Assembly (NCBI GenBank): GCA_038230515.1
Contig: JBBRND010000001.1
Span: 88,464 to 152,463, forward strand
Length of the DNA: 64,000 bases
Reading direction: 5' to 3'
From: Bacteroidia bacterium
Lineage (GTDB): Bacteria > Bacteroidota > Bacteroidia > AKYH767-A > 2013-40CM-41-45
Below, piece by piece: positions 6,698-56,410 of this stretch (position 1 is its first letter; the number at the start of each line of letters is the position of its first letter). Made by a program: the position numbers and the translations under genes. The notes under the pieces were generated by a model, which had not been told where the DNA came from, did not search any database, and worked only from the letters and a program-made list of their open reading frames with translations.

Positions 6698-6991
6698 AGA
6701 GTTCTGCTGATTTTGCGCAATGGATTGCGTTTTCCGGTTGCGTTTTGTGCGGATGGTTATGATTTTCTTCCGGAGGACAGTGTCTTTTATCCGGAGGGTC
6801 GTGATTTTCTTCGGGTGTGCTTTGTTTTTCGGTCGGAGAGATCTGTCTTTCTTCCGGAATGCGTTGTCTTCTGCCAGAATTGCTTTGTGTTTTACATAAT
6901 TGACAGTTTCTTTTGTCCGGAACGCTTTGATTTTCTTCCGGAGTGGTGTGATTTTCTTCCGGAACGCCATGTCTTATTGCGTGTTTGAAGA
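6698..6991. repeat. 21-bp phased array A (about 13 units, consensus GATTTTCTTCCGGA-N7)
   Basis: Units start at 6719, 6740, 6761, 6782, 6803, 6824, 6845, 6866, 6887, 6908, 6929, 6950 and 6971. Each carries a T3-5 tract and most carry a CCGGA core at a fixed offset. Confidence 0.85.
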
Positions 6992-7323
6992 AGTGTAAGT
7001 ATAAGAGAGAAATTTGTGTAACTTTTTTTCAGGTGCAAATTTTGCCGGAAATTGTGGGTTTGTGATTTGAAAGGTAAAGATTTTAGCTTTTTTTGGGCTG
7101 TTTGAAATGTTGCGATGAAACCGGGCGGTATAAAAATTAGCCCCGACAGGAGCGGCATCCTTTTTTTACCAAATTTTAAAATAAGAAAGAAAAAAAGATA
7201 TAGCGGATGGCGGGAGGGGTGGTGATTAGACGCGATGCATTTTCGCTCCAAAAAAAATTTAATGTTGACTTTGGTATATTGCCCGGGTATTTGATACAGC
7301 AGGGGGGCGTTTGGTAAGAGTGG

Positions 7324-8373
7324 TTATCTTGGGAAAATCCACCCTTCTTTATTGAGGGCTTTCATGCGGTTGAGTTCGGTGAATGCTTCTTCCCGCGAAG
7401 CAAAGCCCTCGTAACAAACGAGCTTGAGCCCTTCGCTGTTTTCAATAATGTGTGCATTGAGAAAGCCCTGCCGTTTTAGTTCGGTTTCTTTTTTAGCTGC
7501 GTTTGCAGCGGTTTTAAATGCGCCTGCAATGATGAAAAAATTTTGTGATGAAGTTTTTTTGCTGACGGCTTTATCCAGTTTACTCATGGATGAAGCTGCG
7601 CTTTGTATTGATATGGCAATGGGGGTGGTTTGTTTTACAAAAACGGTTTCTGTTTTGGCTGTTGCGGGTTGTGTGTATATTTCTGATTTGGTGATGGCGG
7701 GTGCGACCGGAGTGATGGGTTGTTGTTTTGTATAAAATGAAAACGGGTTGAGCGAAGCGAGATTTATTTTGGCTGGGGCTACGATGTAAATATTGAGCAT
7801 GAACCAAAGGACACTTCCGGTAAGCAGGAGGGTGTTTACCATATTGAGCCGAATTTTTTTTCGGGCAAAGGCGTTTCGTGGCTGCGACTGAGATGGGCGG
7901 AGTGAAATAAAATCGCGCAGTTGCTTTTCTACTTCCTGTTCAAAATCGCTGTGCAGCACGGGCATGAATTGGATTTGCGAAAGTCCGAAGGAATCTTTCA
8001 GGTAATTTATATTTTTAAATGGCTCGAACTGTAAGTTGCGCTCAACATCTCGCTTGAGTGTGCCTACCTTTTCGATGATAATTTTTTTTCCGGCATTGAG
8101 ATCGCGATGGCATAACTCGACATATTCTTCAATCTCACGGATTGCCTGCGGATAAGTGATATGGTCTTGCTGCGAGATATGATTTGCGAGCAAACCATCA
8201 TTCTGTTTGAGAAAAACATTGAAGCCGACTTTTTTTGACGGTGGAGAAAGTGTGTGCTGGGTAGGATGAATGTGCGAATGAGAATAGGAGGTTAGGAACC
8301 CGCCAAGCTCTGGTACGATTACGCATTGATGGTCGTACAACAATTCGCTGATGTGTTTATCGAACGTAGGCAC
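7324..8373 (-). CDS. HU-like (HU-CCDC81) plus SPOR domain protein
   Basis: N-terminus LLYDHQCVIVPELGGF, one TM segment, and a C-terminal SPOR-like block FFIIAGAFKTAANAAKKETELKRQGF... Confidence 0.75.
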   Translation of the reverse strand: MPTFDKHISELLYDHQCVIVPELGGFLTSYSHSHIHPTQHTLSPPSKKVGFNVFLKQNDGLLANHISQQDHITYPQAIREIEEYVELCHRDLNAGKKIIIEKVGTLKRDVERNLQFEPFKNINYLKDSFGLSQIQFMPVLHSDFEQEVEKQLRDFISLRPSQSQPRNAFARKKIRLNMVNTLLLTGSVLWFMLNIYIVAPAKINLASLNPFSFYTKQQPITPVAPAITKSEIYTQPATAKTETVFVKQTTPIAISIQSAASSMSKLDKAVSKKTSSQNFFIIAGAFKTAANAAKKETELKRQGFLNAHIIENSEGLKLVCYEGFASREEAFTELNRMKALNKEGWIFPR

Positions 8374-8494
8374 TGCAAAAGTTTATGGTGGCTAATTTAA
8401 ATGAAAACGAAAAGGAGGGAACTGATAGTGGAGAAAAGTTATGAAGGCGCGCGGCTTGAATTATAAACAAAAAGAGTTCTGCTGCGGGATTTTT

Positions 8495-55237: not shown

Positions 55238-55992
55238 TTGAGGGCTTCTGCGAGATTTGCGAATGGAATCTTTACGGTTGGAGCGAGGGCAATAATCTTT
55301 TTTGTGCTTGCCTTTTTATATTTTCCACTCTTTACGTACTTACGTTTACGGCCTACAGGTTTCTTTTTTTTACGTCTTATATCATATTCCATCAACAAAT
55401 TCTTCTCAGTGCAGTCGAGCACTTCGATGAGAGGATCGAGTTGATGTTGTATGATGTGAAGGCATTGCTTGAGAAGGATTTTTGACTGGCGCATTGCGCG
55501 CGCGTGTTTCTTTATGCCATTGATTGGATTATTCATACATTCAATATATTTCTCCAATTGAAACCCGAGGTTTTGAATTACTTCCTCCGTAAGCCCGAAC
55601 TGTTCTGCATTTTTTATTCTTCGTGCTGCGTTGAGAACCTGGCGGCAACGACCAAGCATGGTATTTTCATCAGGGCGGTTGAAATCGCTGAAGGCATAAT
55701 AGACGGCATTTTTGAGAACGGTGTTGCCAGTGATTTGTGCATAGGCATAGACACCACAGCTTACTTTGTGCGCTATGGAAGAAAGGTGCCTCTTGGTTTC
55801 TGCTTTTGCATTTGATCTGCCCAGGGGCTTTAAACCAAGACCTGATTTTTTAATTTTATCTAAGCGATTTTGGATGAGTGCGTAGATGGTTTCGATTGCC
55901 GGATATTTTTCGGCAAGTTTTTTCTTTTGAAGAAATGCAAGAATAAATTCGAAGCTGCGGATGCGGGTTTCTAAATTTTTAAGATCATTCAT
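55234..55992 (-). CDS. hypothetical protein with a very basic C-terminal tail
   Basis: 252-aa ORF, helical, with RRKKKKPVGRKRKYVKSGKYKK near the C-terminus. No domain recognised. Confidence 0.6.
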   Translation of the reverse strand: MNDLKNLETRIRSFEFILAFLQKKKLAEKYPAIETIYALIQNRLDKIKKSGLGLKPLGRSNAKAETKRHLSSIAHKVSCGVYAYAQITGNTVLKNAVYYAFSDFNRPDENTMLGRCRQVLNAARRIKNAEQFGLTEEVIQNLGFQLEKYIECMNNPINGIKKHARAMRQSKILLKQCLHIIQHQLDPLIEVLDCTEKNLLMEYDIRRKKKKPVGRKRKYVKSGKYKKASTKKIIALAPTVKIPFANLAEALN

Positions 55993-56098
55993 GGGTATTT
56001 GAATCTTTGTACTGTTGAATTTACGATGATTATTTTTTCGCGTTGCAGAATTGTAAGATTTGAACTAAAAATTGCAAAGGAGGGCGGAAAAATTCGCG

Positions 56099-56410
56099 TT
56101 GTGAGTTAGAAAACTGCTATTGCTGAAGAGTAAATTAGAATTGCAGGAATTTTGAGAGGTGCTGCAGAGGACTAAATTGTGATTGCAGAAAAAAAGATTG
56201 GCGCTGCAAGCGGAAGAAATTATTCTGCAGAGAATAAAATTCTATAGTGCAGGGGTTGCATTGACATTCTCACTGGTAAGAGCTGCATTCTCACTCAGAG
56301 CCGCTGCATTCTCACCCGTTGCACTTGTATTCTCGTTTGCTTTTTCTGAATTGCGGATGATGATCCTTGTATTTGCACCGACTGTAGAGATATTGCTGAG
56401 CGCTTTCTTT
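56099..56410. repeat. 21-bp phased array E (about 14 units; [CT]TGCAG core, then GCATTCTCAC core)
   Basis: The TGCAG-type core recurs at 56120, 56141, 56162, 56183, 56204 and 56225. After a 1-nt slip, G[CT]ATT cores recur at 56285, 56306, 56327, 56348, 56369 and 56390. Confidence 0.8.

Follow-up and report, generated by a model that had tools for sequence, protein, structure and literature searches.

The 64-kb window of Bacteroidia DNA analysed here (64,000 nucleotides in all) contains five non-coding arrays, A to E, that keep a 21-bp register or its double while differing in sequence, which raises the question of what unites such arrays and what might hold their unit length constant. The arrays had been described in a first-pass annotation, and TRF together with lag self-match confirmed all five positions and the 21- or 42-bp phasing (Table 1). 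The units are contiguous and inter-related over the whole period, an arrangement distinct from the repeat-spacer layout of CRISPR; as head-to-tail copies of a unit of ~10-100 bp, seen by TRF and in lag scans, the arrays are minisatellite-like and would be candidate VNTRs. Two public sequencing runs contain the locus, both as DNA contigs of the source samples. Array C is purely 42-bp, without a 21-bp sub-period, and every unit carries the palindrome CTGAACGTTCAG and the inverted pair TGGAAG/CTTCCA. In array E, the direct repeats are spaced at 21, 21, 42 and 63 bp.

Table 1. Positions and repeat properties of the arrays and associated features in the window
Feature	Position	Strand	Description	TRF	Self-match at lags 20, 21, 22, 42	Open frames
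Array A	6691..6990	none	degenerate 21-bp units, TCCGGA..., T-rich on the plus strand (lag scan; TRF)	6844-6892 and 6916-6967, period 21	0.40, 0.55, 0.30, 0.54	3
Array B	16737..16969	none	21-bp units with a 42-bp super-period (TRF)	16767-16951, period 21/42, 84% matches at 42	0.38, 0.57, 0.36, 0.75	1
Inverted gene block	17237..24851	none	inverted relative to congener G002 (BLAST on G002 contigs C8, C36)			
Array C	26610..26905	none	6-7 units of 42 bp (TRF)	26631-26891, 42 bp x 6.2 copies, 92% matches	0.26, 0.20, 0.28, 0.82	3
Array D	37028..37265	none	purine-rich 21/42-bp units (CGGATAAGAGAAAA...) (TRF)	37055-37198, period 21/42/43	0.38, 0.54, 0.41, 0.60	2
Orphan gene	55234..55992	minus	252 aa; 5' end faces array E			
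Array E	56045..56417	none	degenerate 21-bp units marked by CTGCA (lag scan)	below detection (units too degenerate)	0.26, 0.46, 0.28, 0.46	0

A genome-wide class defined by unit length

We scanned the 4.37-Mb genome for self-match at fixed lags, counting scan windows, 105-126 bp long, in which self-match reached 50-60% or more. At lag 21, 141-252 scan windows matched themselves and at lag 42, 205-261, whereas other lags gave 1-17, apart from a separate 22-bp family. Refinement yielded 211 intergenic arrays with a median length of 249 bp and a narrow length distribution (CV 0.40), across which period 42 was stronger than period 21. Within the arrays there was no signal at lags 7, 14, 10 or 11, and the values at lags 7 (0.26) and 14 (0.27) equalled background. 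We therefore rejected an origin from heptamers (21 = 3 x 7) or a 7-bp sub-unit, and the formal tie to 7-nt word tracts that had been drawn for the window does not hold.

The 211 arrays fall into at least 157 unrelated sequence classes, including 120 singletons, so that the common 21/42-bp unit length makes them one class by register and not by sequence, as had been proposed from the window. The largest set sharing flanks has 10 members, and only two arrays have a left flank that matches the right one. With no common flanks and no shared consensus, a single dispersed repeat family or MITE was rejected. Array C belongs to one of the sequence families, of four arrays (C22, C25, C26), in which ~100 bp of flank is also common. 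Fold z-scores of the units averaged -1.05, with 26% below -2 (strong inverted repeats) and 33% above 0; the GC-rich 6-mer or palindromic core, earlier put forward as a common design, is thus confined to a subset of arrays. The only constant features of the class are the unit length (21 bp, more often 42) and the total of ~250 bp, and arrays A to E are part of a lineage-specific, genome-wide class of ~210-280 non-coding tandem arrays.

Several known repeat systems bear comparison. Heptanucleotide LSSRs and cyanobacterial STRRs form many intergenic arrays of one unit length and varied sequence, lineage-specific and of unknown function. The present arrays are likewise lineage-specific intergenic tandem arrays of fixed unit length and varied sequence, but their unit is 21/42 bp without a 7/14-bp sub-period, they are ~250 bp long, and they are tied to particular orphan-gene families. 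REP/BIME and REPIN-RAYT elements have a common consensus, often palindromic, and are spread by RAYT. The arrays are likewise short, often palindromic intergenic repeats, present in hundreds between transcription units; however, they lack a shared consensus and keep a strictly tandem register, and Y1 transposase genes occur equally in array-rich and array-poor genomes. Of 15 genomes, 14 contain PF01797 (Y1 transposase), array-poor ones among them, and the one without it (G115) bears arrays; since the presence of PF01797 does not correlate with the arrays, we rejected a RAYT or Y1 transposase as their driver. In the literature on 21-/42-bp intergenic repeats in Bacteroidota or on helical phasing, we found nothing relevant except BrickBuilt, and the earlier statement that no function had been described stands for the literature searched. 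BrickBuilt, of Porphyromonas gingivalis, is a species-specific minisatellite/MITE with a 23-nt unit and one sequence family of 19 copies, a conserved leader and tail and inverted-repeat ends; it lies intergenically, 49-591 nt from neighbouring genes, and an effect on transcription has been proposed (PMC4596501). It shares with our arrays the nature of an intergenic minisatellite in Bacteroidota, but differs from their at least 157 unrelated unit sequences, 21/42-bp unit and lack of common flanks.

Placement and spacing of the arrays

The arrays had been taken to be non-coding, and this was borne out: 85% lie outside crude ORFs, the genome being 87% coding, 32% (array E included) have no open frame, and unit variability is flat over the codon phases (0.197 / 0.195 / 0.197, p = 0.81). 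The further claim that they are free of stops in several frames is true of arrays A, C and D, not of B and E (Table 1). A sixth period-21 signal in the window, at 49161-49500, is a conserved coiled-coil gene. It falls in the apparent gap in the spacing of A to E, but as a coding coiled coil it was rejected as a class member; the protein (at 49.1 kb), being single-copy, was also rejected as a multi-copy array partner. In Rfam 15 at the gathering score no array was matched, and the window matched only Flavo-1 (7135-7221) and one tRNA. Separately, of the seven Flavo-1 copies that pass the gathering score, four have an array within ~350 bp; such a link is not clearly above chance, as an array is present in about one of every two large gaps.

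In the window, array A is flanked by the lutB start (6657, minus strand) and by the Flavo-1 RNA and SPOR-HU gene, and array B by the end of an acyltransferase gene and the ssb start. Array C has a minus-strand Kelch-gene fragment on one side and the start of an amidohydrolase gene (26882) on the other, and array D separates a minus-strand B12-binding-domain gene from a plus-strand cytochrome c gene. The description of the arrays as lying 5' of genes is correct for A to E. Genome-wide it fails, since 47 of 217 arrays (22%) lie in convergent gaps and arrays occur in all four gene-orientation contexts, shares that rest on crude ORF calls. There was no strand bias even when each array was given the orientation of its downstream cassette gene (AT skew 0.033, p = 0.29), and no enrichment of Bacteroidota -33/-7 boxes inside the arrays. 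Given the convergent arrays and the strand symmetry, we rejected promoter-only placement and strand polarity.

The ~10-kb spacing seen in the window, for which no meaning had been claimed with n=5, proved to be real genome-wide. The spacing is over-dispersed: its CV is 0.52, whereas random gaps gave 0.92 and never fell below 0.75 in 1000 trials. Distances shorter than 5 kb make up 7% of the total, compared with 25% for random gaps; the mode is 10-15 kb. In a related genome (G022) the arrays are 1.5-7 kb apart, so that a 12-kb spacing is no constant of the system.

Orphan-gene cassettes, distribution and turnover

What the first-pass annotation had missed is that the arrays go together with families of small orphan genes, are lineage-specific and mark points of rearrangement or indel in the window. 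Across about a dozen uncharacterised families of small orphan genes, 56-62 of the 79 members have an array 21-250 bp upstream. The 5' end faces an array in F0 (7/7), F1 (8/10), F2 (6/6), F3 (8/16) and F4 (4/5), and in four further families at 3/3, with p down to 6.5e-9. In these cassettes the order is array, G-poor and A-rich leader, and small gene of 200-335 aa, and they account for at least 27-40% of arrays. About 60% of arrays have no cassette gene, among them the solo arrays A to D; gene fragments adjoin some solo arrays, and in some families it is the 3' end of the gene that carries the array. The position expected of an element just upstream of a promoter fits the 56-62 cassette arrays and not those in convergent gaps. 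Annotation of the cassette proteins by Pfam, PHROGs, PDB sequence profiles and Foldseek gave only a generic FN3 / CarboxypepD_reg C-domain, and domain and profile searches detected no nuclease, recombinase, polymerase, Rep or known DNA-binding domain. Contigs often break just upstream of the orphan genes because the arrays are there.

The F0 protein consists of a three-helix bundle and an FN3-like domain and belongs to a family of 3068 representative clusters. A 21/42-bp array lies directly 5' of the gene in all seven copies of this genome, at all seven metagenomic loci and at 22 of 24 assessable loci in relatives, and the unit is unrelated in every case. Array E is an old array of the cassette type. 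Its partner gene is preceded by a G-poor, A-rich leader and encodes an all-helical bundle with a disordered basic tail (AF2 pLDDT 79, helices only), for which there was no Pfam, PHROG or Foldseek match; 11 homologues at 38-53% identity are all unnamed. At two of the three homologue loci examined the upstream gap has direct repeats at multiples of 21 bp, a weak signal from degenerate repeats, and TRF was negative on the homologue loci.

Within the order, F0 is present in 8 of 121 genomes, in multiple copies wherever it occurs, and in none of four congeners. The arrays are similarly patchy and multi-copy, with densities per 100 kb of 6.5 here, 31 in G022 and 15 in G026, and are absent or nearly absent from the four species of the same genus (~0.5). 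Density was zero in three genomes lacking F0; in one genome (G011) arrays are present without an F0 gene. The arrays are therefore dispensable at the genus level, which argues against a core chromosomal role. Turnover is also fast within a genome: once paralogous proteins reach 60-80% identity, their arrays are at background similarity, the leader region being still similar.

All five window arrays sit at rearrangement or indel points relative to congeners. Array A lies at a synteny break, where congener homology stops at 6688, and the adjoining block maps to another contig in three congeners (G001, G002 and G004). One end of the inverted block in Table 1 abuts array B and the other abuts the region holding array C. 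At the place of array D, G002 and L020 have ~3 kb of other DNA, including a Kelch paralogue, and array E lies inside a 3.8-kb stretch (55.2-59.0 kb) missing from G001, G002 and G004. Further synteny breaks in the window are without any array.

Predicted bending and possible origins of the arrays

Lengths of 21 and 42 bp correspond to two and four turns of B-DNA. In a wedge model, with approximate parameters, 38% of 210-bp pieces of arrays had an end-to-end/contour ratio below 0.85, compared with 4% of random genome and 7% of other intergenic DNA. Predicted bending peaked at period 21 and was gone when units were re-cut to 18-20 or 22-24 bp; a second wedge model gave the same direction. Column permutation of the units lowered the predicted bending only slightly (p = 0.012 and 0.46 in the two models), and most of that bending is a generic outcome of the period. 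The idea of curved DNA, raised when the arrays were first noted, thus gains from the maximum at 21 in both models, but is weakened by the slight excess over permuted units and by the lack of 10/11-bp phasing. Phased A-tract curved DNA upstream is known to activate bacterial promoters, with a classical phasing of 10-11 bp. The arrays, predicted to be bent, would resemble it in a shape that depends on phase and not on sequence; they differ in having a signal at 21 alone, in being much longer and in that many are not upstream of a gene.

From these results we tentatively favour the reading that the arrays are fast-evolving, helically phased architectural DNA modules tied to orphan-gene cassettes. 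Repeated every 21 bp, any unit would place its small intrinsic bends on the same helix face, where they would add up, so that an array might form a bent or anisotropically flexible stretch whatever its sequence. In a cassette, the array is the upstream half of a two-part unit and would shape the DNA upstream of the promoter. The fast renewal of the arrays may proceed by slippage or unequal exchange, with only units of 21n bp persisting, and solo arrays such as A to D could be the same elements left or seeded at rearrangement or indel junctions. Bending may be the selected property, and an effect on transcription or on the nucleoid is conceivable.

It is possible, if on balance doubtful, that the arrays are instead functionless by-products of selfish or mutational machinery, travelling with the orphan-gene cassettes or with another lineage-specific factor, which duplicates DNA in 21-bp steps at sites of insertion, excision or break repair, a target-immunity-like effect keeping new events at least ~8 kb off. 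Such an origin is suggested by the structural differences at all five window arrays (a break at A, inversion ends at B and C, a 3-kb replacement at D, a 3.8-kb insert at E), by the patchy, all-or-none and multi-copy distribution, by the exclusion zone between arrays of every type and by the gene fragments beside some solo arrays; unrelated units are what would be expected if local DNA were copied. However, the searches yielded no candidate enzyme: signatures of a nuclease, recombinase or polymerase are lacking in the cassette proteins, and Y1 transposases do not track the arrays. By-products should moreover decay, but F0 arrays persist across very distant homologues while their sequence is replaced, and both the narrow array length (CV 0.40) and the array-free synteny breaks elsewhere in the window speak against this origin.

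That array and gene stay strictly adjacent even across great evolutionary distances would also fit cognate binding arrays, iteron- or centromere-like, in which the helical bundle of the orphan protein binds its own upstream array for autoregulation or to form a nucleoprotein complex, with solo arrays bound in trans. Plasmid iterons are 17-22-bp direct repeats ~22 bp apart, bound by a Rep initiator, and a direct-repeat spacing of 21-22 bp is typical of them. The arrays are similar in having several direct repeats two helical turns apart (period 21/42) beside a gene, and the basic disordered tail of the array E partner and the strong inverted repeats in 26% of units point the same way. In contrast to iterons, they have no Rep-like protein or origin context, they number hundreds on the chromosome with differing sequences, and they diverge faster than the adjacent proteins. 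Since arrays lose all similarity at 60-80% protein identity, sequence-specific recognition would need constant re-invention; at least 157 array classes stand against about a dozen protein families, ~60% of arrays are partnerless, and no known DNA-binding domain was detected in the neighbouring proteins. We therefore consider cognate binding unlikely.

Even less probable is an element acting at the RNA level, with arrays transcribed as multi-hairpin leaders or ncRNAs that control the stability or translation of the downstream gene. The units are enriched in hairpins (mean z -1.05, 26% below -2), and about 20 cassettes have just 21-70 nt, free of any Bacteroidota-type -7 box, between the end of the array and the start codon, so that transcription may begin in or before the array. 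However, composition and motifs are strand-symmetric even when arrays are oriented by their gene, one array in three has less structure than shuffled units do, each of the four gene-orientation contexts contains arrays, none of the arrays matches an Rfam family, and a 21-nt period is structurally meaningless in RNA. Finally, unannotated coding repeats, in which 21-nt units would give heptad-repeat peptides, are rejected for the class and accepted only at 49.2-49.5 kb: the arrays have more stop-free frames than column-permuted versions (1.19 compared with 0.51) and the window signal at 49.2-49.5 kb is truly a coiled-coil gene, but the 32% of arrays, E included, without an open frame, the location outside long ORFs and the flat codon phases, unlike the third-position excess among units of that gene (0.31 / 0.35 / 0.44), make this reading scarcely credible.

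Besides phased architectural modules as the preferred reading, we consider a more far-reaching proposal, which at present appears rather improbable: that the small orphan proteins, those with a three-helix bundle and a beta-sandwich and their related families, form with the arrays an unrecognised two-part system, patchy in Bacteroidota, in which the protein would read or build DNA by period and shape, and arrays would be written in 21-bp steps and exclude one another over several kb. If true, this would represent a new kind of mobile cassette endowed with target immunity or else a transferable punctuation of the chromosome by bent DNA. Tandem repeats in bacteria are usually handled locus by locus, as typing markers or contingency loci. 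Here, one length rule, two helical turns or a multiple, extends over hundreds of unrelated arrays, which outpace neighbouring genes in turnover, yet hold their place before a family of more than 3000 representative clusters, and which come and go as a set between species of one genus. Overall, the length rule, the turnover and the kept place point either to selection acting only on the shape of DNA or to a machinery able to measure out 21 bp, and either would be new biology. Furthermore, the arrays provide a first handle on the role of the orphan families.

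Number, period and sequence of the arrays

Contig C1, which contains the window, is part of a 4.37-Mb draft genome (69 contigs, 99.7% completeness) of an uncultured lineage of Bacteroidota. An assumption-free scan for the offset at which sequence matches itself (lag) extended the 21-bp periodicity described by the first-pass annotation to the whole genome: lag 21 gave 141–252 segments and lag 42 gave 205–261, while other lags gave 1–17, the only exception being a 22-bp family. TRF returned 277 rows at period 21, 182 at 42, 54 at 63, 55 at 84 and 22 at 126, with a handful at each neighbouring period. 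After merging and refining, the intergenic set comprised 211 arrays with a median length of 249 bp (interquartile range 198–310 bp, CV 0.40). Period 42 is dominant among them, with a mean self-match of 0.67 in comparison with 0.55 at lag 21, and hence most arrays alternate two related half-units. No signal was present inside the arrays at lags 7, 14, 10 or 11. They therefore have neither a heptamer build nor a 10.5-bp sub-phase, and the proposed link to 7-nt words, drawn from 21 bp being three heptamers, is not supported.

Where arrays A, B, C and D had been reported, TRF found repeats of period 21, of period 42 or of both, and the units are visible in the raw sequence. Array E is too degenerate and escaped TRF; the lag scan recovered it, with direct repeats spaced 21, 42 and 63 bp. 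The five arrays match themselves at 0.46–0.82 for lag 21 or 42, in comparison with 0.26–0.41 for lags 20 and 22; the periodicity of array C is purely 42-bp (only 0.20 at lag 21). The core design that the arrays were thought to share was not borne out: all-against-all comparison sorted them into 157 sequence classes, of which 120 contain a single array, and flanks are common to arrays only within small families. The palindromic cores survive in part, since hairpin potential is enriched (mean z −1.05, 26% below −2) but is not general (33% above 0).

The 22-bp family (unit AAACACAACAGTGTTTTGCACT and variants, 7–18 copies, 88–96% matches) recurs with the same sequence at many loci, frequently at the ends of contigs. 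It differs from the 21-bp class in that all its copies belong to one sequence family, which contains an internal inverted repeat. Separately, a Flavo-1 RNA (Rfam RF01705, 59.5 bits) is situated 145 bp away from array A. Of the 11 Flavo-1 matches in the genome, seven exceed the gathering score, and by coordinate comparison four of these seven fall within ~350 bp of a 21-bp-period array, a proximity that may be due to chance because an array is present in roughly half of the large gaps.

A coding role for the arrays is less likely. Although the genome is 87% coding, 85% of arrays lie outside the crude ORF set, 32% have no open frame, and unit-to-unit differences are spread evenly over codon phases (0.197/0.195/0.197, p = 0.81). 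The one true coding case, a coiled-coil gene at 49.1–49.9 kb, has a third-position excess (0.31/0.35/0.44). Its 273-aa product has ~14 heptads with 21-nt periodicity, which mimic an array in period scans, and a C-terminal domain without a Pfam match; the gene is single-copy and kept in three congeners (G001, G002 and G004). Stop-free frames are about twice as frequent in the 211 arrays as in their column-permuted versions (1.19 and 0.51 per array), an excess that may reflect a dinucleotide bias such as TA avoidance. Nothing else suggests coding.

Location of arrays and associated features (G000, genome containing the window; G022, a relative that also carries arrays)
Feature	Location	Strand
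Array A	window 6691–6990	
Array B	window 16737–16969	
Array C	window 26610–26905	
Array D	window 37028–37265	
Array E	window 56045–56417	
Flavo-1 RNA	window 7135–7221	+
Inversion relative to G002	window 17237–24851	
Gene spanning G002 contig break	window 23463–24851	
Kelch/PKD/T9SS-tail fragments	window 24864–26510	−
SET-domain gene	window 47581–48012	−
Coiled-coil gene	window 49091–49909	+
22-bp family	G000 C25:69609–69789	
22-bp family	G000 C31:47225–47538	
22-bp family	G000 C52:16900–17289	
22-bp family	G000 C53:1–233	
22-bp family	G000 C44:1–151	
22-bp family	G000 C29:1–203	
22-bp family	G000 C58:15105–15324	
Leader example	upstream of G000 C16:11263–11943	−
Leader example	upstream of G000 C9:22715–23404	+
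Locus L101	G022 C27:10301–15475	

Link to orphan-gene families

The link between arrays and orphan genes is the main new result of the analysis. ORFs of the genome were clustered and the families scored for 5' ends that face an array. This was the case for all seven members of family F0 (225–237 aa), eight of ten in F1 (203–233 aa), six of six in F2 (308–325 aa), eight of 16 in F3 (302–335 aa), four of five in F4 (~310 aa) and three of three in each of four smaller families, with hypergeometric p values down to 6.5e-9. An array lies 21–250 bp upstream in 56–62 of the 79 family members; two families also have arrays just 3' of the gene, and a few solo arrays, those without such a gene, adjoin gene fragments. 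Within the window only array E has an orphan partner; the 252-aa product is helical and has a basic tail, and none of its relatives has a known function. Genome-wide, the claim that arrays lie 5' of genes holds for divergent (61) and tandem (109) gaps but not for 47 convergent ones. These context counts, notably the 22% convergent, are approximate, as gene calls came from our own longest-ORF heuristic (100-aa minimum). Some arrays of the draft are at contig ends. Arrays lie ~100–200 bp from both neighbouring genes, and no composition skew relative to gene direction was found.

Profile comparison paired F0 with F1, F3 with F4 and F5 with F9. Pfam, PHROG and PDB-sequence searches of the families revealed nothing beyond a C-terminal CarboxypepD_reg/FN3-like domain. 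In the AlphaFold model of F0 (pLDDT 89.8), a three-helix bundle leads into an FN3-like sandwich; the only Foldseek matches were FN3 domains. Leaders of the cassettes (array, leader and small orphan gene) contain 5% G, in comparison with 14.5% for all genes, and 47% A; AATTAAA occurs in 23 of 56, as against 150 of 3189. Such a nearly G-free leader may represent a specialised promoter or a translation signal common to otherwise unrelated families.

Within 50 nt upstream of the start codons in 56 such cassettes, (A)ACAATTAAA(C/T) is enriched 6–12 fold.

A profile search with F0 gave 3068 representative clusters. Seven homologues were retrieved from unrelated metagenomes; all are preceded, at a distance of 58–230 bp, by an array of period 21 or 42 bp, and the unit differs in every case. 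F0 is present in eight of 121 genomes of the order, multi-copy wherever well represented (7, 11, 9, 9, 5, 3 and 3 copies), with an array directly 5' at 22 of the 24 assessable loci, and is absent from the four congeners. Array load parallels F0, at 31 per 100 kb in G022, 15 in G026 and none in three F0-less genomes, the exception being G011, where arrays are present and F0 is absent. For paralogue pairs within this genome, a relationship between the arrays can be recognised only where the proteins are at least 80% identical; at 60–80% the arrays are at background, the leader region still being similar. Array sequence is thus replaced at a higher rate than the genes evolve, yet the presence, position and period of the arrays persist.

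Spacing, relatives and rearrangement points

The roughly 10-kb spacing on which the first-pass annotation had placed no weight proved to be non-random genome-wide: distances between array-bearing gaps had a CV of 0.52, in comparison with 0.92 when equally many arrays were placed in randomly chosen gaps (lowest of 1000 trials 0.75). Only 7% of these distances are below 5 kb (25% expected), with a mode at 10–15 kb. A more sensitive detector gave the same picture, and the close-pair deficit is alike for cassette–cassette, cassette–solo and solo–solo neighbours. Arrays in G022 are much denser, 1.5–7 kb apart, so the 12-kb figure characterises this genome rather than the system as a whole. The 80 kb of G022 sampled held 25 arrays, far denser than the window's genome, and at locus L101 nine 21n-period arrays lie almost back to back over 5 kb.

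Four same-genus species (LutB 86–89% identical, DNA ~77%) hold two arrays in 369 kb, as against 6.5 per 100 kb in the window's genome. This scarcity is not an assembly artefact, since their contigs reach 228 kb. When the window was mapped onto G002, G001 and G004, synteny broke at array A; arrays B and C were at the two ends of an inversion relative to G002, where one gene spans a contig break (C8 start joined to C36 start); relatives carry 3 kb of other DNA at the array D site; and array E is contained in a 3.8-kb insert missing from relatives. No array is present at two other breaks, at 47.2–48.1 kb and 52.1 kb.

A 143-aa SET-domain protein (PF00856, E = 2e-11) is encoded at a synteny break; its G002 counterpart is on contig C10, different from the contig of both its neighbours. 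Fragments of a Kelch/PKD/T9SS-tail gene (ORFs of 97, 245 and 153 aa), which belongs to a 12-member paralogue family, adjoin array C. The intervening 100 bp are 93–98% identical to the sequence flanking two further members of the array C sequence family, and gene and array were therefore duplicated together.

Predicted bending and the proposed role of the arrays

The closest described systems are STRR-type arrays, BrickBuilt of P. gingivalis, a minisatellite/MITE (PMC4596501), plasmid iterons, REP/REPIN elements and curved upstream DNA. Each misses at least one defining feature tested here; heptanucleotide STRR-type arrays do combine a fixed period with varied sequence. No account of period-locked 21/42-bp arrays, or of their tie to these protein families, emerged from the literature searches.

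Curvature of 210-bp pieces was predicted with two dinucleotide wedge models (parameters entered by hand), pieces with an end-to-end/contour ratio <0.85 being scored as bent. The Bolshoy–Trifonov model predicted bending in 38% of pieces from arrays, 4% from random genome, 7% from other intergenic DNA and 26% from column-permuted arrays; the corresponding De Santis values were 26, 1, 2 and 12%. Predicted bending was maximal at period 21 and was lost when units were re-cut to 18–20 or 22–24 bp. Relative to column-permuted units, real units showed only a marginal excess of predicted bending (paired p = 0.012 for Bolshoy–Trifonov, 0.46 for De Santis). Taken with strand symmetry and sequence independence, the predicted bending favours a DNA-level, phase-dependent role; most simply, the arrays would be the bent upstream module of cassette promoters.

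In the main rival reading, a 21-bp-measuring process tied to cassette mobility or break repair would have left the arrays as its footprints. This reading would account for the breakpoints, for the patchy occurrence and for the exclusion zone, but has no candidate enzyme, as Y1 transposases do not track arrays, and it poorly matches how long arrays have persisted 5' of F0 genes. Binding of a cognate protein and an RNA role are less likely.
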